Below the pieces are notes generated by a model. That model worked only from the letters and a program-made list of their open reading frames with translations, had not been told where the DNA came from and made no database searches. This document shows positions 99-59,995 of a stretch of 64,000 nt of DNA, piece after piece. Every line of letters begins with the position of its first letter. Position 1 is the first letter of the stretch. Source of the stretch: Phoronis australis (Eukaryota > Animalia > Phoronida). Location of the stretch: assembly GCA_002633005.1 (NCBI GenBank), contig NMRA01000224.1, positions 185,988-249,987 on the forward strand. The letters are read 5' to 3'. The position numbers and the translations under genes are program-made.

Positions 99-497
99 TC
101 ATACACCCAGAGTACCAAACAGAAGCCTGATTAACGAATACGTCATCAAACAGGTTATATAAAACTGATCAACAACTGATCCGCATTTCTTTGTTTCCTG
201 CCTGCCGAACGCAAACACACTGTGCACAGCATCTGACTTTAGCCTCAGTTTCTTTTTCTGCCCTGGCATGAGTTGTTTGGTAAGCTGGCATTCGTCAGTG
301 AAATCACTGTCAACAAAATGCCGGCCACAGACAAGATAATTCACGTCCTCATACTTGGTATTAACGACATATTTTTCATTCTTCACTGCCTCGAGCCACT
401 TCCAAAGCCTTATGGGCTCTCGAGGAAATCGAAAAAGCGATATAACCGCTTTTCTCACGGCTTCATAGTTCGCGTAAGCGGGATCGATACACCACAC
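99..497 (-). pseudogene. Degenerate THAP zinc-finger ORF, probably a DNA-transposon remnant
   Basis: THAP hallmarks LFRFP, W..AV, VCGRHF..SDF, LRLKSDAV.S.F. The second Cys is apparently Tyr (WCIDPAYAN), the AVP box reads AVH, and there is no in-frame ATG. A ttaa-AGG terminus-like sequence at ~644-650 would fit a Kolobok-type end (inference). Confidence 0.7.
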
Positions 498-661
498 CGT
501 AGCTGCATGAACTTTGCAGAAGAACCACTGACGTCGCTGCGTCGTTTCTCACCTTCCTCACTGGTTAACGCGACACCACTCGGCGAAGTAAGATCGACCG
601 TATACGAGGTGATGTGGATATAGACCGATTAAGACGGCACTCTCCTTTAAACATACCCAAC

Positions 662-3054: not shown

Positions 3055-4117
3055 ATGAGCGAGTTATCCGAGTGTAGAATTTAATCTTGCACTTAGTAAC
3101 AATCTGCCATAGAATGGGACAAATGACCATATCTTTTTAGTATAATGCATGTACAGCTGAGGAGTAGCATGATGAATGTAAAAAATGCTGACCACTGGTT
3201 TTGATTTTATGCAAATTCAAGTCTTCCTATTACAACTCTTCTACCGTTGTTGGTCATTTTCCCCAAGTCACATTTAACTTGGATCTGTCAATCATTGCCG
3301 AGATGCGATTCTCCAAATTAATATTGTCTTCAGAGACAAAGTATGATGGTCCCAGGACCAGCTTGTTGGGGTCACTGCGGTCGAAGTAACTTTATCGAAT
3401 GTTTTGCACTTGTGTCTGGAAATTCTTCAGTGCAATGCACAATAAAATCGAAAATCGTGTTTTGAAAAATCATAGAAGTGTATTGTAACCTTTAACTGAA
3501 TATGAACACACATATTCATAAGAAAACTTTGGCAGTCCAAGTTGACTTTAAATGCCACATCTCGTGTTCATAATGAAACCGAGAAGNATGAGCGAGTTAT
3601 CCGAGTGTAGAATTTAATCTTGCACTTAGTAACAATCTGCCATAGAATGGGACAAATGACCATATCTTTTTAGTATAATGCATTTACAGCTGAGGAGTAG
3701 CATGATGAATGTAAAAAATGCTGACCACTGGTTTTGATTTTATGCAAACTCAAGTCTTCCTATTACAACTCTTCTACCGTTGTTGGTCATTTTCCCAAGT
3801 CACATTTAACTTGGATCTGTCAATCATTGCCGAGATGCGATTCTCCAAATTAATATTGTCTTCAGAGACAAAGTATGATGGTCCCAGGACCAGCTTGTTG
3901 GGGTCACTGCGGTCGAAGTAACTTTATCGAATGTTTTGCACTTGTGTCTGGAAATTCTTCAGTGCAATGCACAATAAAATCGAAAATCGTGTTTTGAAAA
4001 ATCATAGAAGTGTATTGTAACCTTTAACTGAATATGAACACACATATTCATAAGAAAACTTTGGCAGTCCAAGTTGACTTTAAATGCCACATCTCGTGTT
4101 CATAATGAAACCGAGAA
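3055..4117. repeat. ~530-bp near-identical tandem duplication joined by a single N (likely allelic overlap at a scaffold gap)
   Basis: 3055-3587 and 3589-~4117 differ at only a few positions that I could see. The n at 3588 sits exactly at the junction. Confidence 0.9.
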
Positions 4118-4609
4118 GAACCAGAGCTAGTTCATTCCCAACACAGTCCCTCTTGTTATATACCTGACTACAAACTCTACAACACCTACACAGGTTATTA
4201 CAGGTCCACTAACTGTCATAGTCTGCACAATAGACCATCTCAATGACCCTTAATCTTGTTTCAAACCACCTACAACAGGCCTTGCTTTCGTAACACTGAC
4301 TGACAAATGGATATATTACGTAAACAAAACATAGACCTCTTACACAGAATAAGTGGTTATCTCTCTTCATCGCCCGTCATGGCACCATAACTACTTCAGA
4401 ACCTAATAGTTGCATTGATGCGTGAGCTCATTCTTTGATGATTCACTTATCATTCAAATCTTGTTCATAAATCGTTCAAATCTTGATTAATTGTAGTTCC
4501 CTGGTGAACTACAGTAACATAGACTCGTGAAATTAGTCGATTTTGACGACATCGTTTAATTCCGGGAGACAACAGTAGTGACTGGAGCACCCCCTGATGA
4601 CTAAATAAC

Positions 4610-4698
4610 ATGGTATCTGTCCCTAAGATTACCTCAACATGGGATCTGTCCCTTGGATTGACCTCAACATGGGATCTGTCCCTTGGATTGACCTCAAC
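4610..4698. repeat. 30-bp tandem repeat, ~3 copies
   Basis: Unit atgggatctgtcccttggattgacctcaac. Confidence 0.85.
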
Positions 4699-5448
4699 GA
4701 AACGTAACACATGGTATATCAGTCCAGGCTTACTTGGTGAGGGTTATACAACACGAGGTTCTAAAACTAGGGGAAAATGGGGCAAGGAGGAGTCGCAAGG
4801 GGGGGGGGAGATCTGTATACACTTGGCATCAACCAATACTAACATGTATTCAGTATACAAAAGTAAATATATAGATATCTATGTTCTTGTTACTTCTCTA
4901 CTATTCCACAATATTCTTAACATACTTAATACCTTTGATAGTGACACAGATAACTTGGTAAGAAGCTACAACATGCCCAACAATTCCACCGTCATATACA
5001 CTTAACAAACTAAGAACACCTAAATCAAATCATGATTAAACTTGCCCAATGTTCAACAAAGATTTGAAACTGCTCTATAAATGAGTACCTTGTGAGTATT
5101 ATGAATCTACACTAATGGTTATGCTCTAGTCAATATATAATTGTGATATTTTTTAATACAATTAAAATTTGTTCATTACCATCTTTTTTTACTGGCAAGA
5201 CAGTCTGAAACATGATCAAATTGTTTAAAATGGAAGCTCCAGAGTGAAGATTTGACCTCTGCCCTTTACACTTTGACCTAGTACAACATGGCACCAAATA
5301 CAGGAATCAGCAGAAATATGGCAGCAATAAATAAAATGATTTACAAGACAGCAACATTGATCAAACAAAGATAAAGCCAGGTGATCACTATAAAAGACCC
5401 AGAAACACAAACAACGTTGAGTATTAGCAAAGAGTGTAGTGTTAAGTT

Positions 5449-6653
5449 TTAGGGGGGTACGTATGGGGGGGGACTCGGTTGATACGAAGGCTCTGTGCGT
5501 GGACGGGGAAGAGTAGAATCTTCACTATTCACGGGGGGGTCGGGAGGATGATACGCTGGCACCAGCGTCTCGTTTTCCATTTCTAACTCGTCCTCGGGAG
5601 GGTCGTCTTCTATAGGTTCTTTGTGGTCTGACGGTGGCGTCGACGGCGTGTTAGATCCCTCGCGGTGATAGGCAGGCGGTTCCTGCGCGGGTTGCTCATT
5701 GTCCATAATAAGTGGTCTGGCCGGAGACTCCGCTTTGTCGTCTAGTTCGTCCGCAAATATAATTGGGATCCCTTTGTTAACAAACGTGCGTTGTTCTTCC
5801 GTCTTCATTTTGCCTTGTCGTCGTTTCCGGTACAACACGCATGCGATAATGCCAGCCAGAAGAAGCAAAGCTACAATGATGACTGCTGGTAAAACTTTAA
5901 CAACAAGGTCATCGTCATCACCTTTAGACTCCCCTCCTTTCCCAGGCTTAGCTGTGGTCGGCTCAGGCTCAGGTTCTGTTCTTGGTATCGGAACAGATGA
6001 AACAGGCTCGAATTCCCCTTGGCAAGAACCTTTGGGTTCCAGTGCCAAGGACGACAATTCAAATGGGTGCATCATTTCCTTCGCTTCAGGTGTAAATGTG
6101 CCATTGGGATACATCAGCTTCTTCAAGAGACCTTCCACGCCTTCGGAGTTGCAGCTATCGCCACCTAGTGATGTGTCGGTCCACGAGAGAATAACGGAGC
6201 CACGCTTGAGACCAGTGATCTGCAAGTTATTACCATTTTTGTTACCTAACAAATTGCCCAACTTCCTAAGAAAATCGAGCTGCATGTGGACGTCATTGAC
6301 AAACGTATCGTAGTCAATATTTAAGGTCATGGTGAACTCATGACTGATGGCCTCTTGCTCACCAGGACGAGGAGCTAATACCATGATGTCCAGTGCTGTC
6401 CTCACTAACGCTTCGCTAGAATCCATTGCTGACACCTTCAGTTGATACAGACCGATATCTTTCTCCATCGGAAGACCAATTAACTCTTGCTTCTTCGCAT
6501 TGTATTTTAGCCAAAAGTTCCTTGGTAGTGTTGTACCTTCCAGAGTTGTGACGAGAACGGCAAGTTTGCGAGTGTTGCCATCCTCGGCATCGATGAAAGT
6601 GTCTTTCGGAATTCTGAATCGGAACACGTTCCCGACAGTGGCAGGTATTTGAC
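5449..6653 (-). CDS. DAG1: Dystroglycan terminal exon B: paralogous cadherin-like domain 2, SEA module, TM helix, ~126-aa cytoplasmic tail
   Basis: Phase-1 acceptor tatatttattttcgtag|GT CAA ATA. Motifs FIDAEDG, RGSVILSWT, Cys pair, TM VLPAVIIVALLLLAGIIACVLY, RKRRQGK, KGIPIIFADELDD, PPAY, PPPYVPP*. Confidence 0.93.
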
Positions 6654-9033
6654 CTACGAAAATAAATATAACACATCACCACGTATTATCATTTTTAAAA
6701 TCAATAATGGTCGGGAAAAAAACAAGGGCCTGACATGGGCTTGAAAGTTCCGACAACTGCAAGCTCTCAACTCCAGTTCAAGTATTTCTCATACTTACTT
6801 TTGACGCAACGTAGTTTTAGCAGACACACAAATGATTCTAGGTCAAGATATAAAATTTTATTCGAGATGGGCCTCACTCTTACCAAATTTTCATGAAAAC
6901 TTGGGTTTTCTCCTCAGACATGCTGGTAATAATTAGAAATGGTAGATGTGAACACAACGGTTGAGTGTGACAGCTTGTGTGCAACAAATGTACAAACAAA
7001 ATGTGTAACTAAATTATATATTTATTGTGAAATGTTTCTATGACATAAGACAGTAGGAATATATGAACTTATATAGTAGAACACACAAGAGGTATCGCTT
7101 ACCAGAAACAGCAGCGATACTTCAGCAAATAATACCGACCAGTTAAAAGGTCAAAAGTCACACCTCATTTTCCCAAGTATCAGAACATTCCACTAAAGTG
7201 GAATTGTTCTTCAGTTAGCTCAAGAAATTGTGACAAGAGAAAAACCAGTTACATTCCACTGAAAAGTCAAATTTACCCCATGTTTGTACAAATCAAGTAA
7301 TGTGGACAAAACATGGTAGAGTTGGTTAGCCATGGACTCATATGCTGTAAATGTAATTCTTATGAAAAATTTGTTTTTTCTACACTGTATAAATTTAAAG
7401 TCCATGCTCAGACACCATTAACAACATCAGAGAAACATTTAAAGGCAGGTTTTACAAGATTTAAAAAACTTAGTAGAACGAGTATTTAAATCACAGCAAA
7501 GACAAGACAACATGTCGACCCATAACTAATTCTAAAGCCTACCAGTCCATCAAAACAAACTACACACTTAGACTACTATACTTACATGGCCATAACTTTT
7601 TCAACCATTGCTACGAAACAAGACATCGTGCAAAGAAAAACAATGGCTGTTACATTGATAGATACTGAACTATCAAACATTGATAGATACTGAACTATCA
7701 AACATTGACAGTTTAAGTGAGCTTGGATAGCAGAAATATTGGTACGATAATTGTTACGAATATGTTTATTACAATAAACAATTGGACATAACAGAAGAAA
7801 TGTGCAATCTTTCGACCATATGCAGGAACAAATAATGGGTCCAGGATCTAACTTCTGAACTCAAACTAGACTCGACCAATCACCCTGTACAATTGGAGTA
7901 CAGATTTGCAAGTTTACTCGATGTGTGTCATGCAAATGTATGGTCAGCTTTGGAGTTGAGTTTCGAGAACAGATATTACATTCCATGCTCTGGGTTATGA
8001 CCAAGGAGATGCGAACATCTATTAAAAAGGGGTTCATTTTTACCCTATACAGCAATGATGGAGAGGCTGCACACTCCACAACAACACAAGATTGGCAAAT
8101 AATTCAGAAACAACAAACATAATTCAGAGGCGTGCAGACTGATCTGTATTACAACGCCAGTTCAAGATTTACATAATTCAGTCTACGATCAATGCAGTCA
8201 TCTCAGCTACACACCAAAGAATGTATAAAAGCAGTTGAGATACAAACCCAAACATTTGAGTGCCATAAAATTCAAAGGATATTTTCTAAATCATTGACCA
8301 AGCAGTGTACTATAGCTACATCTCTCACTGAAAGTGGACAATTACATCTGTATATGTCTATAAAACCATGAATTTACAATTAAAATTAAAATTAAAATCT
8401 CATATAATAAAAGTAAAATAATTTAAATCAACTGTACACCACATGGATGATGAACCAAACATTTAGCTCTCAGCATCGCAACAAACCTAACACAACATAA
8501 CCTCTACTTGCAATTTCCATGGCGTTTATCGTTTTCAGTATTACCACGACAATTTCTGAAACTGCTCATTTTCGGAATTGTTCCCATTAATATAGTTCCC
8601 ATTTACTCACCTGGATGAGAGCATATTACTTGATGACAAATCCTAAATTAATTGCTGTGCTTTAATGTTCATCGTTAGTAAGAAATCACCTCTTTTACAA
8701 AAAACATACTGGGTGCATTTTATGCAATTTAAGTTGCTTTCCCTGAAACAACATATAGTGCAGTTAACGTAAATTCCTAGAAACAAAGAGGTTGCTCTTT
8801 TTACCTAAACCACTAGGCAAAAACTAACACCTGACTTACAAAAGCGTTAACGAAGTAGCGACAACTCTCCTCCATTCAAGAAAAACATAGACTCTCATGC
8901 CCATAAAACCAAAACAAGCACGCGATTGAATATCAATAAAGCCGAAAATTTACTGTAACTTGCATAAAAATTGACGCAATATTTTCTCAAGAGCAATTGA
9001 CAAAATATACTGCGTAATATTCAATCCGTGGGC

Positions 9034-9039
9034 TTTATT
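9034..9039 (-). terminator. Candidate polyadenylation signal for the exon-A isoform
   Basis: AATAAA on the minus strand ~510 nt after the exon A stop. Further AATAAA copies at 7765-7770 and 7021-7026, before the exon B acceptor. Confidence 0.35.
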
Positions 9040-9551
9040 TTAATCAAGTTTCCAAGTTTTCTCCACCACTAGGACGAAGCAAGTCATTTTTTTCTTTCAA
9101 CTGCAATGTTCGTCCGATGCTGCTCTCTAGCATCACGTGAAGTAATTATGCTAAATGAAGACGCATATTGTGTAAACGGGTGCGTCGCATTTTACACAAC
9201 CTTGAAAATTTGTAAGAAATAAAACTGAAAAATATACAACCATCGGTTTCATTTCTTGATTATCTTCCTTTCATTTCCATTCAAGAAGCACTGAGGTGTG
9301 TCTCTGTCAAATATACATTGTTCGTTATTCTGCACTGGAGAAATGATTTTAATCCTCTTTTGATGGACACCAAGAAATTGAAATTGGACCCCAAAAATTT
9401 CGGAAGGCAGAACCAGTGGACCCTGAGTTTGGAATTATGGGGCGAACACTGCAATGACTGTACAATTTGAGTCTTTAACACCACTAAGTTCAAGTAGTTA
9501 ATATCATATGGCATAACTAACGGAGCACGTGAACACAATGTAGCTGCCGCA

Positions 9552-10723
9552 TTATGGTGGAACATAAGGCGGAGGACTAGGCTGATAGGAGGGTTCAGTG
9601 CGAGGACGAGACGACCGTGAGCTCTCATCACCCGACGGTGGTCGCGGTGGTTGGTAAAGCCGAGATGACGAGTCCTCCATTGGTTTGTCCTCCGCTGAGC
9701 TGTCAGTGTGGTAGGCGGGTGGTTTCTCAGTCTCCAAGATTAATGGCTTGGTAGCATTCTCCGGCTTCTCATCCATCTCATCAGTGAAGATGACAGGAAT
9801 ACCTTTGTTGATAAACGTATTCTGATCTTCATCAGACATCTTGCCTTTTCGTTTCTTGCGGTATAAAATGAAGGCTATGAGTCCGGCCAGCAACAACATG
9901 GCAGCAATCACCACCGCCGGCACCACGGTCACAACCCACTTGTCCTTTTCGTCGCCAGATTTAGACTCCTCTTCATATCCGGCAGGAGTTGTCATAGCAA
10001 CGGCAGGAGTTATCATAGCAACGGCAGGAGTTGTCATAGCAACGGCGGGAGCCCATGTCACTGGCTTGAAACCCGTCCTATTCTTCATGCAAGCACCTTT
10101 GGGTTGCAACGAGACAGACATGATCTCATAGTCACCCATCTTGTCCAACATATTTGCTGTAAAGGTCTTGTTCACATACATCACCTTTCCAAGCAGATTG
10201 GCTATCGCTCGGACTGGACACTGGTCAGAGGTCAAAGAGGAGTTTGTCCAACTGATAATGACCGACCCTTCTTTTAAACTAGTAATGACCAGTTTACCTG
10301 GATCATCTTCGCCAAACACACTCGCCAGTTTCGTCAAGAATTCCAGCTGCATGTGGACGTCATTCATAAACGTCTCATAGTCGATATTCAGCCTCATGGC
10401 AAACTCAAACGTAGCATCCTTAACTGCGTCACTCTTGCCGGCCTCCTGCACATTGATGTCAAATGGACTCCTCTCTAACTGTGCATCTTTATCGATTGCC
10501 GTCACAAAAAACTGGTACTTCTTCACGTGCCTCTCAAGTGGAAGACCAATAATCTCTTGTCGCTTCTTGTCGTAAGTCAGCCAGAAATTCTTGGGAAGGG
10601 ATGTTCCAGCAATGGTGCTTACAGTTAAAAGTAAGTTACGAGTGTCCCCATCTTCCTGATCGTAGAAAAGGTCTTTCTTGAATTGATAGCGGAACACTTG
10701 GCCGACTGTCGCAGTCAACATAC
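9552..10723 (-). CDS. DAG1: Dystroglycan terminal exon A: cadherin-like domain 2, SEA module, TM helix, ~102-aa cytoplasmic tail
   Basis: Phase-1 acceptor attgtattccag|GT ATG TTG. Motifs FYDQEDG, EGSVIISWTN (G|S cleavage), Cys pair, TM VVTVVPAVVIAAMLLLAGLIAFILY, RKKRKGK, KGIPVIF, PPAY, PPPYVPP*. Confidence 0.93.
9981..10047 (-). repeat. Coding 21-bp tandem repeat (PAVAMTT x3) in the exon A juxtamembrane stalk
   Basis: Plus-strand unit ggcaggagttgtcatagcaac x3; absent from exon B. Confidence 0.9.
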
Positions 10724-11019
10724 CTGGAATACAATGTAGGTGCAGTGAAGACATTTCGCACATTCAGAAAAGAAATGCCAGACAAAGGGACTACGAAATA
10801 AATTAATTACAAAACAAAGGTACAACATCAAAGCAAGTACAACATGCAAATGACTGGTTTCATATTTTCCAAACAATCCAAGTAGCCGTGAGGTGTAGAG
10901 TTCTCCAAGCACTATCAGAGAAGTGTCAGTCAAGATATCTCAAAAAGTCAAAATCGAGCATTAAAACATTAGGGGAATGTCATGATCAAAAGCACAAAAA
11001 TGCCTGGTAGTTCTCATTA

Positions 11020-11182
11020 GCAGTTATAGCAACTGCGGCTGTTGTCATAGCAACAAAGGCCTTGTCATAACAACATGAGCCATTGCCATAGCAATTCGGG
11101 CCGTGGTCATAGCAACATGGGCCTTTCTTGTAGAAATTTGGGACATTGTCGTCATAGCAACTCGGGTCGTTGTCATAGCAAT
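11020..11182. promoter_or_regulatory. Array of ~7 RFX X-box-like motifs at ~21-bp period
   Basis: GTTGTCATAGCAAC at 11041, with variants at 11020, 11061, 11082, 11103, 11148 and 11169. The 14-bp cores are conserved and the spacers are divergent. The 11041 and 11148 copies match RTHNYYWTRRNRAC. Confidence 0.5.
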
Positions 11183-11981
11183 TGCGACCGATCAAGGGTA
11201 GCAGCGGCACAAGAAAGCATGAGCATGCAATGCCTCGAGCAACTCACCTGGCGATAATACATGACGAGGTTGTCAAGTGGTAGCAGACGTCCAACATCCA
11301 GGCTATAGACCGTCAAGACTGAACACGGCTCTATGGGTAACACTGGGTTAGTTTGGTTGGGGTTCATGAGATATCTTTAACAGACACCCTCTGTATGCCT
11401 TACACGCCAGACAAGACCATGTTCAGAAAATGCCTCACAGCGTAACTACCATAAGGTAATACGTAGCAAATACCTGGACATGCTCTAACAGCGTCCTGTT
11501 ATAACAGCCCCAAACAGCGCCGCCTTAAAGTGGTAAAAACACACACATTGGCCATAGTACTTGTCCTGATGAGTCTCCTTGCTAATGTACTGTTGACGAA
11601 AATAGTTTAAGCTTTATTTGCCCAAAACATGCTTTCAGTTCACTACTAGTACCTTCTCACCTAAATTGGCGAAATTTTAAAGCAAACTTTTCTGGCAAAT
11701 GTCAAATGATTTATTTTTGTTTCTGATATCTTTTTAAGTTTATTGCACAACATTGACAAATCCAAACAAGTTTTGATGAAACTCCTCAACTTTTTTGAGA
11801 ACTACGTATAAAACATGGTATCATTGTAGGTTTTTGAGCAATTTTATAATAATTCATTTACTAAGATAATTTTTTTAAATGTTCCTGAAACAAGATATGA
11901 CTGCCGACAATTGAGGTTGTTAAGCAGTGCAAAATGATTATCGTTTCAACAGAAAATTTGCTGTCTAAATACATTACTCAT

Positions 11982-12149
11982 CAGGGGTGGATCCAGGATT
12001 TTGAGTTAGGGGAGACCAGGGCAGAGTATTAGCCAGGATTTTGCCCATCAGACATTCACACCCCACCCCCTGAACTGCCAAATGGAATCTGGGAGAAATT
12101 TAGAGGGGGCCATGGCCCCCTTGCCCCCCTCCCCTTAAATTCGCCACTG
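11982..12149. mobile_element. Non-autonomous TIR element (MITE) with 5-bp TSD
   Basis: Termini caggggtggatc...aaattcgccactg flanked by ctcat on both sides. A second family member lies at 62106-62379. Confidence 0.8.
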
Positions 12150-14438
12150 CTCATATACTGAATATTTTTATGAAGTTAACATTAGCAAGAGGATTCATTA
12201 GTAGACATACCATTGGACGCTGGGCGAAAGCAAAAGAAGTGCCTTGAGTATGCTCCCAAACAAACAGGCACAACTGATAGTACAATTATTACACTGGTAC
12301 AGTGTACGTCTGCCACTGTGATGGCTGCTGGTGAGTGAACAAACACAAACACATCCTTTCGTTCATATATTAAAACCAAATGAGGACGGTCACCATTACT
12401 TTCAAATAAAGTGAAGAATTACAACTAATATACAGAATATTCTACTTAGATGTTACACTTAACACTACAGCTATTAAAACACTAAACAACATCTTAAAGT
12501 GGCAATAAACCCACATTCACTCCAAGAAGCTAAATTTTGACTTCGACTCCTCCCTGCTGTAAAATTGGTCTCAACTTGTTCCTTACTCACACGACAAGTA
12601 ATTTTGGCCTTGCAAAAAACTGAAAGTTCGTTATTCCTTGAGACTAAGACATGCCGTGACAAGTAAAACTGTGGAGGGTGGTCTTGAGCAATAGTAAACT
12701 GACAAGCCCAGAAGTCGCACCTATTTTGACTTGAGAACATTTTCAGTGAAACCAACTTCACAATGTTAAGAAGTATGAATCAAAAATTGTTTTTGTGATT
12801 GAAAGTGGGTTTGCATTCGCTTTAAACTAATACCAGGGTGTTATCTTAATGCTAGGAGATGAATTTAGATGATCTCAACGGAAACACAAACATTGGTTAA
12901 TATACAGGAATTGTCAAACCACACCCAAAATAACAACAAAGGAAGCAGTTGAACAAAAAATACTTTCTTTATCAGTGGTTAGCGCCAAGACTGGGTAGAC
13001 TAATATCAGTAGCGTATTAGATGAAATGAGTGTTTCACAGTATCATGTAACAAATAAATAATTCAAAAACTGGTAATTCTAAAATAAAATACGGGGGTTT
13101 AATAAGACGGCACCGATTTGAAATTGTGCTATCTCCGATATTATACATTCTGAAGGAGTATACGACAACGTTCGATTACATAACTGATAGTAAGGCTTGA
13201 CAACTCATGTAACAAACGTTTTGTATCGGTCCTTTCCAGAGTTTACCGCCATTGGCTTTTATCCGTATGGTTCTCCCATTAAGGAGACTTTGTAATAAAT
13301 GTGCTCCATTTCCATTGAGAGACATGCTATCTTCCAGTAAAATACGTGTTTTGTAGGAACCTTGCGTCACTCGTTATATTTTAAGAAACGAAGTCACACA
13401 AAACTTTAGTAGCATTCACAGGTCACAGAACAAATTAAAACAAAATATCTCTTATAATAAGCAACACACTCTCCAAAGTAGTTGTGAGCCAGTTAGTTAC
13501 TCAACTAAGAGTGAATAACAAACGGAGAAACAACACACGTTACTGTGAAAATTCCAACATCGTGAACGATAAAAATTTTCATTTGTAAAAATTGGGTCAG
13601 TCCTTGCTTTTGAAACAAATGGAAAATTGCGAAATTAAGTTGAAAGTAATTTATATTGTGAAAGCAAGTTAATAGGGAAAGCTTCAATTCTTTTGAATAA
13701 AAAATTTCGCCAGTATCAATTCCAGAATTTTAAAAGCGTGTGGAATAGACATGGATGGAAGCGCCAAGACCAGAATGCACTTCCAGATAAAAACGAAATT
13801 ATTTCATAGGCAAATTTATGAGAACCATTTTACAGCAAGTTGACCTGCCACTGCATGTTTATGAACTGCCGACAAGACAATATAGGTATTTGAATGGCAC
13901 GAGAAAAAGAAATCCAAATATTATTAAGTAACGTCAGTAAGAAAGCGTAACTCACTCATAAACCAAACAAGATAGGGCAGATAAAATTAAATCAATTATC
14001 AAACCAACATTCACAGGATGTTTTTTAAAATCTTTGCTATGTCAATAATACCTTTTGTAACTTTTTTAACATGGAAAGTTTGAGTTTCAAAATGTTTGTG
14101 GCTAGACGCCCTCGCCAACTCGATTTATTCTAATTTGAAGTTTGAAATTTTGACTTGATCTAATTACAGTGGTACAAGACATTTTCATTTGCGTCATCAG
14201 TTCCAATTTCCTGTCGATTTGTAAAGGTGTTGTGCAGTTTTAACTAACTGTGAGAGTAAATTAAGAATGAATACCTCTGAAGGGAAATCGTGTAAACTTT
14301 ACAATTTGATGGCTTTGTAATTTAGTCATCCAACCGCACACCTCACCGAACACATGAATGTGTAGGGATGAATACTCACACGCATACTAACACAAACGAG
14401 CACACAAATGCACACAAGCAAGAAGACGCGTGACCTAC

Positions 14439-14490
14439 CGATACGATTCTTGACTTTAGGGCCAGTGTTGTCGCCTGGCTCTGGTTTAGG
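14439..14490 (-). CDS. DAG1: Dystroglycan exon 5 (PKPEPGDNTGPKVKNRI + G); last shared exon, first strand of the second cadherin-like domain
   Basis: Strong polypyrimidine acceptor cccttttctttgttcttctag|CCT, donor ATCG|GTAGGT, 52 nt, phase 0 in and phase 1 out. NTGPKVKNRI resembles the vertebrate NQRPELKNHI segment. Not in the ORF track. Confidence 0.88.
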
Positions 14491-15315: not shown

Positions 15316-15516
15316 CGTAGTGGCTCTGGTGGGTTTGGTTGGTCGAGTGGGTCGTGTGGGTCGTGTGGGCATCTTGGGCGTTCTCCGTGTGGTGGGTTCA
15401 GGTTCCGGCGTCATACGGGGGGTGGTGGGCATCACTTTGGGTGTTGGCTTCACCGTGACAACGACATCGGCTGTTCTCATGGGAGTCGGCTGTGCTGTTG
15501 GCATGACAACTGGAGC
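15316..15516 (-). CDS. DAG1: Dystroglycan mucin exon 4 (P/T/R/K-rich)
   Basis: Acceptor tgtgttaattccag|GCT, donor ACG|GTATGA, 201 nt, phase 0/0. Encodes APVVMPTAQPTP...PTRPTRPTKPTRATT. Confidence 0.9.
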
Positions 15517-15984: not shown

Positions 15985-16053
15985 CTTAGATGACATTTCA
16001 GGGGCGACTGTCGTCATTACTTGAACTCTTGTAGGCCGGATGGGCCCAATTGC
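15985..16053 (-). CDS. DAG1: Dystroglycan mucin exon 3 (AIGPIRPTRVQVMTTVAPEMSSK)
   Basis: Acceptor tttccttaccgcag|GCA, donor AAG|GTAAGC, 69 nt, symmetric phase 0, P/T-rich. Confidence 0.75.
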
Positions 16054-17312: not shown

Positions 17313-18029
17313 CGATTTTGTTCTGTCCACATCCATAGTGGGCACTACGGCTTTGGTAGGTGGCACCTGAGGCCCGATGGGCGTGGCTGTGGCCTGGATC
17401 TGACGTTTCAGCCTCCTCGTGGGTTTCACCAATTTATTGCTGGTCACGTGCCATCCCAAAATATTGTGTCCGATGGCGGCCGACATGGCGCCGTTCTGAG
17501 CCTTGGACTCCACATCTTCTAGGATCTTTAGGTGATCTTTGTGCACTGACCCGCATCCGATAGTCCAGGATATAAATGCTCCAGGGTGTTTTGGTTTCAT
17601 AGCATCCCCTCGTCCTGCCACAATAGCCGTCTTATCAAAAAGAGGCTTATTTCCCACAGGTAACATTGTTAAGAAGTCTTCCGTCAGTTTCAGATGTTTC
17701 ACCATCTTACTTATAAGGTCAACTTTGCTTGATGGTAACAGCTTATTAAGATCAGTGTCTACCACAACTGTAACCATGGTGACAGCCTCATTAGGCTGAC
17801 ACGTGATTGGCTGCAGCGTGTTAGCACTAGGATTGTCTTGCTGGGATTGGCGGGTTCTCTCCACCACACTAATACTGAAGACATCTTGTGCCCGCCCCCC
17901 TGTGCCATCTGCCCTGACCTGAATGTAGTACTCCCCCAGATCCTGATGACTAGGGACACCTGAGAGTGTGTGAGTTTTCCCATCATACATCAACCAAGAT
18001 GGCAACTGGTCACCATTTCCCTCCGTAAC
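17313..18029 (-). CDS. DAG1: Dystroglycan coding exon 2 (rest of Ig-like domain, S6-like domain, furin site, start of mucin region)
   Basis: Acceptor ttttgtttcag|GTT, donor TCG|GTAAGT, 717 nt, phase 0/0. Motifs LPSWL..D, LSGVP...DLGEYYIQVRA, ISWTIGCG, GWHV, furin site RRLKR followed by QIQATATP. Confidence 0.95.
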
Positions 18030-24367: not shown

Positions 24368-24649
24368 CGTGAGTTGACGCACATCGCCTTTGAATGTGTC
24401 TGATGGGATTATGAACTTGAACACTTTACCAACAACTGCTTGTCTGTCCTTGAGAGCATTCTGCAGCACGATCTGAGGTTTGATGGCGTCGCCCTTTGGT
24501 TGGTCAGCAGAACTAACAAGTTGTTCAATGTCACTGGTCACAGCACCAGCCGTGCACAAGCACAAACACAGTATTGCCATTAACACTAGCACAGTCTGTT
24601 TCTGCAACTCCGTCCTATTGAAGCCACACCTCTTGGTATCGGCAGCCAT
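24368..24649 (-). CDS. DAG1: Dystroglycan coding exon 1 (signal peptide and start of N-terminal cadherin/Ig-like domain); the exon including 5'UTR starts at 24720
   Basis: ATG, hydrophobic signal-like segment VLVLMAILCLCLCTAGA, then AVVGKVFKFIIPSDTF (dystroglycan N-terminal motif). Donor ACG|GTGAGT, phase 0. Upstream acceptor ttttgtgctcttgcag| at 24720. Confidence 0.9.
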
Positions 24650-28120: not shown

Positions 28121-29277
28121 GTGTCTATGTCTGAGAGTGTCAGCAAACACTCGTCTGAGTACAGACACAATTGCATCATGGGACATTTAAACTCTGCACA
28201 CTTGCACTGTTCCTTTAGCTCATATACAATATACGTTGACCAACACATTCTCAGCGAGATCACACCTAAATAATGCAAGATGTCCGAGTGTTTCACCTGT
28301 GTATGTTCAAAAATGGAGCAGCCAACCGGCGCCATCTAAGTACCAGGACTGCAACTAGGGCTTGACTAGAGTATTAAATCATAGATGTAGACAACAAGTA
28401 AACACCTACAAAGGTTTACTATGAAAGTTCCACAACAAATAGGAGTAAACATCACATTAACATGTAAACTTGTTCCCTATTCAGGTAAAATAATGCAAGA
28501 CGCTCTGGCAGCCCTAACAGACAAGTGACTGAGGACAACTCTTAGGATAATCCTCCCAATCTACGGTAGGCAAACTAGAGAAACCATCCCATAGGAAAAC
28601 GCTGCAGATATACGCTGCATCACACAATCATGTGTGGTTGTTTTCTATCAAGTCCCTGAACGCACTCCCACTACACACAGTGGCTACCCCACAAGAATAC
28701 CTACATGCCAGGTACAAGCCACACATGTTTCAGTCTGGCAGGAATGAAGGTTGAACCAAACAATCCAATGGGGAAAATGCTGTTCTTGTGGCCACAAATA
28801 GTTTACATTGACATTGAGGAATTCCCTTCAGAGCTGCCCGTTTATCACCCTACAAGAGGGCTTGAGGATATTGCAGTGTCCTGGTGGACGGAAATTACTT
28901 CAACAAGCTTCTCATGAGTTGATGAGGACCAAATGTTAAGTGCGGAAAGAACAGACTGCTGCAGGTATTCGGTTAAATAAACATAAAAAAACCAGTCAAG
29001 GTCAATTATAAGTATCGGCAGAGGGGATATTTTTTAACATTTTCTGCGAGCAAAGAAGCACCCAACTGCGACATTCCATAAACTGAAATTGTCAATAACG
29101 ATCTCAACCGATTGTTTTGTCCACTGAAAATGTAATCAGTACAGTTCGGTAACACCCCTACATTGGCACAAACTTGGTTGAAGGCACAACTGTAATTTTT
29201 GTTTGAAAGCTTAACAGGAGATTGCATAGAGACTGCAAGTGAGTATGCATTAAGCTCTCTAAAAAAGTACAGTTGTG

Positions 29278-29545
29278 CCTTCAACCAAGTCTGTGACAGT
29301 GAAACGAAAACTTTCCACTCAATCTGACTTTTCACTAGTTAAGTAAAAATAATCTTTCTTCCTTTTGGTCTTGGTTTTTGTGATACTTAACTAGAACTCG
29401 AATGCGTGGAAAGTTTTCATTTCACTGTCACAAACTTAGTTGAAGGTAATTACTGAGCAAGTATATATAAAGGTATCTAAAAAATTACAGTCGCGCCTTC
29501 GACCAACTTTGTGACAGTGAAATGAAAACCTTCCACTCCATTTGA
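29278..29545. repeat. Direct-inverted-direct triplet of a ~45-bp motif, probably MITE-internal
   Basis: ccttcaaccaagtctgtgacagtgaaacgaaaactttccac at ~29278, its reverse complement at ~29407-29446, and a direct copy at ~29496. Confidence 0.7.
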
Positions 29546-30349
29546 GTTCAAGTTAAGTACCACATATGCGATATATAAAGACCAAAAAAAAAGAAAAAAG
29601 CGGATTATTTTTCGGTGGAAAAATCTAATGTAATTTTTTTCACAGCCAGATTCCCCGAGAAATTGTGCCGTTCCATTGAATTGCCTATAACAGCCCTATT
29701 TTTGTTGTTGGGAGCTCAATATGCCCACTTGCCAATGTCAGCAGTCTACAGCAAGATGAGTAAAGCCTGTTGGTCCTTTGCAGGGGCATTAAGTAATTAA
29801 CTGTGTATCTGACCACTTATCATTCCTCTCAGTGTGCACTTTGGATAGTGTTACACATGCATGGTAATTAGTACCACAGTGCAATATGGCTACCACTGTT
29901 TATTTGTTCAACATAACTCAGAGGTAACCACAACTGGTTGGAACATTTTGAGGGTGAATGGCTGACTTGATTTGCTAATGAGCCAGAAGCAGTTGCATAA
30001 CGAGATATCAAGTAGAAAGTGTCAGACATTTTGCAATGTGTAGGTACTCAAAACACCGACTATCAATTTTGATTCAAAGCTCAAAAACAAAAAAACTCAG
30101 GAGTCCTAACGGCCACTGAAACCAGAGCAACCAAAAACATTGATATATGTCCAGTGATGCATCACAAATGGAATGCTGGTGTGTTTATTGGTATCATAAA
30201 TAAAAATTACCACCAGATGGCACAGAATATGTCAAACCCTCTGAAAATGGGAAGGTTATGTTGTCTCCCTAACGAAGGCCTAATAGCCGAATTTCATGAA
30301 AATCCGGTCACAGAGGCGACTGCAAAAAAGAAAATAAATTGCAAATAGC

Positions 30350-57776: not shown

Positions 57777-58512
57777 GTAAGGGGATTTCGCTGCTCTCGT
57801 TATCTCCATGGCCACAAAATTGTTTAGTGCTCCAAGGCAAATGGCATGACACATGTCCTGAAGTGCCATGAGTTTGTACCCCAAGTGCAGCTGTCACATT
57901 TTACTCAAGTAAAATACACTATTTTTATCCTGTAACGAATGGCGATTAAAAATGCTATGTCTCATTGAACTGTGAATATACAAATGAAGTACCAGTTTAC
58001 AGACCACCCCCGGGTCTTCTGGTGTGCAGGAAACCATCCGAGAACCAGTTAACATTACAATCTTGTGAAAGTCTTGTTTTGCTAGACTATTTTTATGTAA
58101 ATGAGTATGGTAATATGTCATCATTACCTTAATGAAACAAGGCACAGTTGTTATTATTTGTTCATTTCACTACCAAATAACAATTGCATAATATTTGGAA
58201 TTACTAGGGTCATCTATATGCTCACACAAGTTCTTAACTGTATCAGTTGTGCTGTTTTCTTAACACTGCAATTTATTTACAAATTGTTTCAGAAAATCTT
58301 TTCCTGATTATAATTGTGCACACAGTTCTCCAGGAAGTCACAAGGTGGCACTTGCTACAAATTTAAATATTCACGGTTTTAATGAGACATAGCATCTTTA
58401 AAGTTTGGATTTTACTTGGTATGTCATGACGATTAAAATAACGATCAAAATGTTGATTAAAACATCCATGCAAACAGGTCTAGTGAAACAACCAGCTTGT
58501 GATATCTTGTAG

Positions 58513-59995
58513 GCATGTTAGGACGCTATCTTGGAAACTTAAAACCCGACCGCCAGGCGTTGTGAAGGGCCAAAGTTGGAAAAGCGCACACTATATAGCA
58601 CACTATATAGCGTTAGGCAGAAAAAGGACAAACAGTGACTTCACTTTACTAACCCCTTCAATCCTGCTGCAGGTTCTAGATGACCACCCATCTCAAGCAA
58701 GCACAACTGAAGACAGCGTGTGCCAAGATGCACATACTCAATACAGGCTTCAGCAATACCATCAAAATATATTCGACATCCAAAAAAGTCACCTGGCAAC
58801 CAGTGACATTGACAAGTACCGGGACAGTGACATTTATAAAGAATCGTTATTGGTATTCAATCCTTTGGGAGAAAATGGACTAACCACAGGAAGTGTGATA
58901 ACACAACAGATGATGAACGACATGAATGATGACGAGATAAATATCTCTGCGGTCAACGGTATTCGAAATCACAGAATTACGTCAAAGAACGAACCAGAAA
59001 CATGCAGACTTAGAGAACAGGAACAACCAGCGCCACCTGAAAACATCACTAGCAACTGCGAAAGTACAGACAGTGAGGACTTCAAAAAGAAAATGAGCAC
59101 TGAACTTCATGAACAGAATACAGAAAGAGAAACTTCAAGAAACAAATCGTTCCAAGAACTTCATTTAGTTGAGTTAGAAGCCAAAACAAGTTGTGATGAA
59201 GCAATAGTGCAGGAAAATGTAACGGAAGTCACACACATGAAATCAGCTACAGAGGAGGAAGTCTTATTAATGACAACCAATGACACGGGCGCAGTGTTGG
59301 CTAATGACAGTGAAGCTGGAGGCAAGCTGGACAACTACACGCAGCCTGAGCAGACAGGTAGCGACCCCTGTTGGACAATGGATGAAGTGAGCCAAGAGAA
59401 TACAAACAACTCCAGGCGATCAGCAGAGTCAAAGATGAAACAAATCACAAATACTGACGTACAACAAAAATTTACCAAACGAGTTAATACCAACAGGAAC
59501 TGTACAACGTATAGTGAAAATCCGATAAAATGGCAAACTTCTATGAAGCCTACAAAGAAGCGAACTATTACCAAAAGAGTTGACAAGAAAGACTGGCAGA
59601 CTACAACGAATGAAGAAACTTTGACATGTGAAGAATCCCAAGTCAATGAAAGTCACAGGCCCACTGCAAAAACAAATAGTTCCCAGAATGTCGACCTCAA
59701 CAAATTGCCCAATGCAATGCGAAACAAGACCATGTTAAATAATGATGTGGAAAATCGAGGCAAGAAACTCTATGAACTAAGACAGAGTCACACCTGGCGA
59801 CTGCCCAAGATTGCTGCGCGTACAGCCAGATGTCAGCAAGAATGGCACCGAGGTGAGACGGGGTCAGAGCACAGCAGTCGGCTGGCCGTTCGCTTGCAAT
59901 GGGAAATGGAAAAACTCTCAGTCTTGGCAAAAACAGCTACTGCAGTCTACCCAGACATAAATGAATATGATAATGGACGTGACTCATCTAATTAA
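58513..59995 (+). CDS. Large terminal exon of the uncharacterised gene (T/N/E/S/K-rich, likely disordered)
   Basis: ~1.5-kb stop-free frame in AT-rich DNA. The phase-2 acceptor tatcttgtag|G CAT is in frame with the upstream exons; an alternative phase-0 acceptor (ctaac...ctgcag|GTT) lies at 58673. No recognisable domain. Confidence 0.65.

Follow-up and report, generated by a model that had tools for sequence, protein, structure and literature searches.

A Phoronis australis dystroglycan gene with a tandemly duplicated last exon, likely encoding two receptors that differ in their membrane halves

Dystroglycan is commonly regarded as a single core protein that is varied mainly by glycosylation, and to our knowledge the duplications known in this family are of two sorts, those that make the ectodomain longer and those of the entire gene. 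In vertebrate DAG1, all but the N-terminus is described as lying in one large exon (PMC4582122). C-terminal substitutions derived from tandem exon duplication and made by alternative polyadenylation are reported for 236 human events, NECTIN2 and PRKCB being named among them (PMC8373072). Here we analysed 64,000 nucleotides (nt) of DNA from the phoronid Phoronis australis (GenBank assembly GCA_002633005.1, contig NMRA01000224.1, positions 185,988 to 249,987), a stretch that we call the window and whose own coordinates are used below. In the dystroglycan gene found there the C-terminal 390-401 residues exist in two spliced versions. The last exon is tandemly duplicated and exon 5 is spliced to either copy, A or B, which likely gives two receptors with a common matrix-binding half and different membrane halves, and selection likely holds the C-terminal tail. 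We give this reading a probability of about 0.85. The features of the gene are these.

24368..24649, minus strand: coding exon 1, predicted; 282 nt, phase 0, with the ATG, a hydrophobic leader and the start of IG1; GT donor, open frame.
17313..18029, minus strand: coding exon 2, predicted; 717 nt, with the remainder of IG1, the S6 domain, a furin-like RLKRQ and the start of the mucin-like region; AG/GT ends.
15985..16053, minus strand: coding exon 3, by prediction only; 69 nt, mucin-like, Thr/Pro-rich, frame-preserving, AG/GT ends.
15316..15516, minus strand: coding exon 4, by prediction only; 201 nt, mucin-like, Thr/Pro-rich, frame-preserving, AG/GT ends.
14439..14490, minus strand: exon 5, the last shared exon; 52 nt, Thr/Pro-rich, with a phase-1 donor (14439) that serves both terminal exons according to junction reads.
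9552..10723, minus strand: terminal exon A, coding part; IG2, Gly-Ser maturation site, SEA/NU domain, stalk, transmembrane helix and a cytoplasmic tail of 102 residues.
9980..10051, minus strand: translated minisatellite in the stalk of exon A; 21-nt unit, 3.4 copies, PAVAMTT-like, found by Tandem Repeats Finder.
9555..9608, minus strand: last 18 codons of exon A, a PPxY tail of the dystrophin-binding type; stop TAA at 9554-9552.
7000..9551, minus strand: 3' untranslated region (UTR) of isoform A; length about 2.5 kb, with an AATAAA at 7026-7021 and an approximate 3' end near 7000.
5449..6653, minus strand: terminal exon B, coding part; the same domains as exon A, with a cytoplasmic tail of 126 residues.
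6175..6177, minus strand: Asp codon of exon B at the position where the family has Asn, from the homolog alignment.
5452..5505, minus strand: last 18 codons of exon B; stop TAA at 5451-5449.
4150..5448, minus strand: 3'UTR of isoform B, continuing below 4150; stranded depth 35-105.

There is little doubt in our minds that these features form one minus-strand dystroglycan gene with A and B as alternative last exons. In tblastn searches with four homologs, the N-terminal exons were found once in the window and the C-terminal module twice, with no third copy and with no N-terminal exons between A and B. All four homologs match exon 2 (35-44% identity) and two also match exon 1, for which the chiton and Capitella dystroglycans give support. 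Exons A and B lie in tandem on the same strand and resemble each other with a BLAST E value of 1e-108. Both start in phase 1, the phase of the exon 5 donor, and the predicted isoforms are open over 830 (A) and 841 (B) residues. The Pfam family DAG1 (PF05454) was matched by exon B with E=7.9e-59 and by exon A with E=1.7e-50 (199.9 and 172.5 bits against a cut-off of 23.3), and both exons match the solved alpha/beta-dystroglycan chains (structures 8YT8, 9C3C and 8UF4).

The use of both exons was followed in RNA from three raw-read runs of one study (X2, X3 and X4, with 18-19% of each run used) and in contigs from another study (X1). The signal over exons A and B is confined to one strand. Exon 5 is joined to exon B (donor 14439 to 6653, a GT..AG intron of 7,785 nt) by 36, 25 and 15 reads in X2, X3 and X4 and by one X1 contig, and eight further X2 reads make this joint with one different base at it. 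The joint to exon A (donor 14439 to 10723, GT..AG, 3,715 nt) was found in 0, 2 and 11 reads of the same runs, so that joining to exon 5 is seen for B in all four data sets and for A in two. The ends that overhang at 6654 and at 10724 carry one and the same stretch of exon 5. Over the coding parts the mean depth is 5.9-8.4 for exon A and 34-64 for exon B, a share for A of 9%, 9% and 20%; exon B is the major form and exon A the minor form in the three read sets. By junction reads the share of A is 11 of 26 in X4 and 2 of 71 in X2 and X3 together (Fisher p=4e-6), and such a difference between samples suggests regulation, the reads not being fully independent. At the first base of exon B (6653), 11 X2 reads have T for C, which would turn the junction codon from Gly to Asp; mapping to the full region gave five T and three G, and this variant is either an allele or a sequencing error.

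Each form also appears to have its own 3' end. Stranded depth continues past exon A through the spacer at a level similar to that of exon A, drops in the 7004-7154 bin and, in each of the four runs, has fallen to 0 at 6853-7003, and the AATAAA at 7026-7021 adjoins this stop. These results indicate that A carries a separate UTR of about 2.5 kb, without read-through into B. No junction from exon A to exon B was present among the junctions listed, and an apparent one from 10388 to 6400 was rejected as an edge effect of A/B similarity, since it disappears once the full region is mapped. The separate 3' ends make the use of exon A and exon B exclusive, the exact polyadenylation site of A being approximate. 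The choice would then be a contest, in which cleavage and polyadenylation behind A would remove B from the pre-mRNA; in the alternative outcome exon 5 would be spliced straight to B, discarding A inside the 7.8-kb intron. The end of A's UTR beside the AATAAA lies about 350 nt before the acceptor of B, and the presence of intron reads before A with none just before B would fit 3'-end formation behind A preceding the splicing of A. The different UTRs would add separate control of the two mRNAs. Pairing of the RNA to loop out exon A was considered and rejected, because the best long-range stem (-13.7 kcal/mol) was matched in 94 of 100 shuffles.

The two copies are old. In the alignment of A with B 195 of 374 residues are identical (52%; 45% by BLAST), and over the whole exons the proportions of differing synonymous and nonsynonymous sites are pS = 0.74 and pN = 0.33. 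Of the 177 identical residues that lie outside the tail 98 have different codons, the longest exact DNA match is 20 nt, and no A/B similarity was found outside the coding parts, UTRs included. The initial annotation had proposed an old duplication with purifying selection on both copies, and had argued against an allelic artefact, a recent conversion and a dead copy. All of this is borne out: the age by the saturated silent sites, the short exact match and the lack of similarity outside the coding parts; the reality of both copies by RNA reads in which each is spliced to the one exon-5 donor; the lack of recent conversion by the tail, where 11 of 13 fourfold sites differ; and the life of both copies by frames that are open, transcribed and spliced, A having its own 3' end. 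Selection on both is highly probable from a pN of 0.33 beside a saturated pS of 0.74 and from a tail pN of 0.

In a tree of 58 modules, A and B form a clade with a Shimodaira-Hasegawa-like approximate likelihood ratio (SH-aLRT) support of 99, with end branches of 0.49 (A) and 0.52 (B) and a stem of 0.33, inside a group that holds Lingula and molluscs, a placement that points to a lophotrochozoan source. The 56 homologs had been chosen manually out of 200 (named taxa and non-arthropod-like sequences), two wanted rows being absent. With the ectodomain only (31 rows) the A+B support is 94. The duplication is thus deep, and these trees, all of them quick ones made without bootstrap, suggest that it is later than the split from all sampled homologs, that is, lineage-specific. 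The homologs that the searches found reach at most about 45% identity, the nearest being at about 40-45%. No protein pair other than the window's own combined N-terminal identity of at least 80% with a divergent C-terminus among 138 proteins; when exon 2 was used to look for pairs of full-length isoforms, none was found among 795 candidates, which is weak evidence. Lingula isoforms X1-X5 are identical in their last 400 residues. Two tail types among mollusc-like homologs were considered as a second case of alternative exons, and we then read them as belonging to different taxa, since the one named cluster is from Pomacea and the other type includes Pinctada.

Differences within the species were taken from X1 among those listed (40 of 158 and 40 of 50), and the counts are therefore lower bounds. 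They comprise at least seven silent and at least four replacement bases, the latter in three codons, in the coding part of B, and at least two silent and at least one replacement in that of A. No substitution in either tail is among them, X1 covering the tail of A only partly, and no indel in either coding part is among the indels listed (12 of 19, and 4).

Exons A and B both end in RPRTEPSYQPSPPPYVPP followed by the stop codon. The identity of the last 18 residues had been reported from the sequence, together with 14 silent and no replacement differences in their 18 codons, and our alignment reproduced both statements; the codons match those reported, and each of the 14 differs between A and B by one base. 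The tail has a pN of 0 and a pS of 0.95, and its 11 of 13 differing fourfold sites compare with 62 of 89 overall. From the gene's codon usage 12.6±1.9 silent differences are expected in the tail at full saturation, against 14 observed. The 14 of 18 is ordinary saturation and carries no information beyond it. What is unusual is the identity of the peptide, a run longer than chance would give: in the A/B alignment the identical run of 18 compares with a next-longest run of 7, and 16 of 20,000 shuffles gave an identical run of at least 18. Both tails have PPPY within their last seven residues. From this conserved C-terminal motif (PMC4582122), docking of the tail on dystrophin or utrophin is predicted. 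Since a single dystrophin site is the predicted docking partner of both forms, selection likely holds the 18 residues identical. Tyr is at position -11 in both tails; in homologs Y, F or H is at -10 in 143 of 156 and Y or F at -11 in 2 of 156, so the tail common to A and B is derived. Eight Pomacea dystroglycans (P0125, P0130, P0132-P0135, P0199 and P0264) end in ...PPKIQP or ...PPEIHP and are without the terminal PPxY tyrosine.

The two membrane modules are both well kept and differ from each other in several places. Among 49 highly conserved columns A misses three and B four, the median being three among 109 dereplicated homologs. Both modules keep the Gly-Ser, the transmembrane helix, two PPxY motifs and the NU/SEA cysteine pair, each cysteine of which is present in 199 of 200 homologs. 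At the Gly-Ser site, with the consensus Hy-x-R/K-G-S-Hy-Hy-Hy, LKRGSVIL of B is a full fit and LKEGSVII of A has Glu for R/K; this Glu was dropped as a sign of lost cleavage in A, since 25 of 200 homologs have it too. At one position that is Asn in 199 of 200 homologs exon B codes for Asp, and 195 of 200 have an N-x-S/T sequon at that site. The position aligns with the NNT of mammalian beta-dystroglycan chains, the sole sequon noticed in the beta ectodomain, and beta-dystroglycan is described as having a single N-glycosylated residue (PMC9733019). None of the listed X1 differences falls on the Asp codon. The juxtamembrane motif is RKKRKGK in A, the commonest form (62 of 200 homologs), and RKRRQGK in B. 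For mammals this region is reported to bind ERM proteins, rapsyn and ERK and to act as a nuclear localisation signal (PMC2834674). The cytoplasmic part has 102 residues in A and 126 in B, against 120-124 in four homologs; A is shorter by about 24 residues and is without the PxSxHK segment that B and 28 homologs carry. The stalk of A comes after the SEA-domain extension, which in human dystroglycan is reported to shield the MMP site (10.1101/2022.04.04.487063).

The stalk repeat of A seems to be polymorphic in length: as read from its overhanging end, an X1 contig ends at 10009 and resumes matching from 10052, which is 42 nt fewer, in frame. In intron 5 a degenerate 21-nt array (11026-11181) has the palindromic core GTTGCTATGACAAC in common with the exon A repeat at 9980-10051, and that element may also be the origin of the coding repeat. 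This core resembles an RFX X-box.

The ancestral features would be split between the two copies. A would have kept the beta-subunit sequon and RKKRKGK, lost about 24 cytoplasmic residues and gained the stalk repeat, and B would have kept the full cytoplasmic region, lost the sequon and come to read RKRRQGK. Such complementary losses would amount to subfunctionalisation, and a functional division of A and B is conceivable, with the odds somewhat against it. A fuller version is about as tentative: two regulated, subfunctionalised beta-dystroglycans, chosen by a switch of polyadenylation site and both clipped to dystrophin by an identical, lineage-specific tail. The major one would be without the near-invariant N-glycan site and have an altered motif for ERM binding and nuclear localisation. 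The minor one, biased to some tissue or stage, would carry the ancestral membrane-proximal signals, a stalk built of repeats whose length varies, and a signalling tail that has been shortened. That the two isoforms exist as separate proteins is likely, as predicted from the gene and its RNA.

Several observations weigh against the two-receptor reading or parts of it. The junction of exon A amounts to 13 reads, 11 of them in one run, with none in X2 and no X1 contig, and X2-X4 are 18-19% samples from a single study. The Fisher value assumes independent reads, and depth gives A shares of 9%, 9% and 20%. Unspliced RNA may account for part of the coverage of exon A, intron 5 having a depth of 1.1-2.6 that is higher beside the acceptor. 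No read end with poly(A) is among the overhanging ends listed, so the 3' end of A is placed by coverage and the hexamer. B retains another sequon (NGT, residue 183), which A has too. A free tree of the transmembrane and cytoplasmic parts without the tail (31 rows) leaves A and B unjoined; the tree constrained to A+B scores higher and is not rejected (approximately unbiased test, p-AU 0.564). Finally, two Tachypleus dystroglycans that are 53% identical share just nine terminal residues, so a common genome and partner is not a sufficient cause of an 18-residue identity, and we dropped it as one.

An ancient gene conversion at the 3' end, with silent sites saturated again later under ordinary constraint, would explain the tail with the same gene structure. 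We compared the length of the shared tail over 155 homolog modules that terminate in a PPxY-like motif. Among non-arthropod-like sequences (61, after 94 with arthropod-like ends had been removed by a regular expression, a crude filter built on the tail itself), none of 273 pairs at 47-58% identity shares at least 18 terminal residues, the maximum being 13. The run of A and B exceeds all of these as well as the Tachypleus pair, it begins abruptly, and the shifted Tyr is in both tails, all of which would suit conversion. However, in all homologs 10 of 792 pairs at 50-55% identity do share at least 18 terminal residues, these having arthropod-type tails, and some arthropod-type pairs retain 18-20 at 49-54% identity. 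The DNA has no trace of such an event, as fourfold sites differ at least as often in the tail as overall and the UTRs have no similarity. The ectodomain alone groups A with B, so their shared derived features need no conversion, and selection would still be required to hold the peptide while silent sites became saturated. We therefore regard conversion as improbable.

Somewhat more improbable is a reading in which exon A decays slowly or is leaky, still being transcribed and now and then spliced but no longer giving a needed protein. Its minor share of 9-20% by depth and the lack of a junction read in X2 could be taken in this way, as could the minisatellite with a length variant in its coding stalk and the loss of about 24 cytoplasmic residues. 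But its frame of 1,172 nt has stayed open through the saturation of silent sites, it misses just 3 of 49 conserved columns, and it keeps the Asn sequon and the RKKRKGK that are changed in B. In addition the repeat variant is in frame, and the end branches of A and B are similar. Two separate genes, an arthropod-like in-frame internal repeat or a haplotype or assembly duplication are scarcely credible: in-frame IG2_MAT_NU repeats are described as common in dystroglycans (PMC4582122) and a probable false duplication lies nearby at 3055-4089, but each copy has its own transmembrane helix, tail and stop, A ending in a UTR with no listed A-to-B junction, one N-terminal set serves the window with none between the copies, 45-52% protein identity is far from allelic, and junction reads from exon 5 reach both.

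Some other features of the window were noted. The segments 3055-3557 and 3588-4089 are a near-perfect 532-nt tandem duplication flanking a single N at 3587, with a candidate AATAAA at 3052-3047; this is probably an assembly artefact, possibly inside the 3'UTR of B. Over the intronic elements 11980-12120 and 12555-12780, which are dispersed repeats, many reads from both strands match in part. A stop-free frame at 58487-59992 (plus strand) has 502 codons and is acidic and of low complexity, and a 149-codon frame at 99-548 (minus strand) has a Cys...CGRHF pattern that is reminiscent of a THAP zinc finger. A cluster of inverted and direct repeats of 40-47 nt at 29161-29548 is possibly the remnant of a small transposon.

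One outer half with two membrane halves is a natural swap experiment in which the dystrophin site is held constant. It bears on what is contributed by the SEA domain and its N-glycan site, by the stalk and by the middle part of the cytoplasmic tail. A form that is highly expressed and lacks the Asn kept in 199 of 200 homologs also speaks to the question whether that glycan is indispensable.

The gene agrees with the description of dystroglycan (DAG1) in domain order, Gly-Ser site, cysteine pair, transmembrane helix, basic juxtamembrane motif and C-terminal PPxY (PMC4582122). In arthropod, hemichordate, placozoan and Nematostella dystroglycans the same module is described as tandemly duplicated, the IG2_MAT_NU repeats lying in frame in one polypeptide before a single transmembrane helix and tail (PMC4582122). 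Here the transmembrane helix, tail and stop are duplicated too, and therefore the copies are alternatives. Paralogue pairs of teleosts and lamprey also give two C-terminal halves per genome, but as whole-gene duplicates (PMC4582122), whereas here the N-terminal half is common. Drosophila Dg is reported to have a mucin-less splice form (PMC4582122) and to be regulated by the choice of alternative 3'UTRs, under miR-310s (PMC4199286); it is likewise diversified by splicing and 3'-end choice, although its ectodomain or UTR is altered and not the whole membrane subunit.

Our literature search found no report of duplicated terminal exons in dystroglycan, supplements, which could hold one, lying outside it, and the main text of PMC8373072, supplements apart, does not contain the word dystroglycan. 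The locus is like the class described there in its homologous tandem 3' exons, used one per transcript, with separate 3' ends. The closest analogue is NECTIN2, in which the transmembrane region is reported to be part of the swap and a conserved C-terminal binding motif to be retained at either end (PMC8373072). Unlike the cases described in that paper, one exon here swaps nearly half of the protein, two folded extracellular domains included, and the pair looks lineage-specific. Exon switches of this kind are known; this one is unusually large and sits where apparently none has been described.

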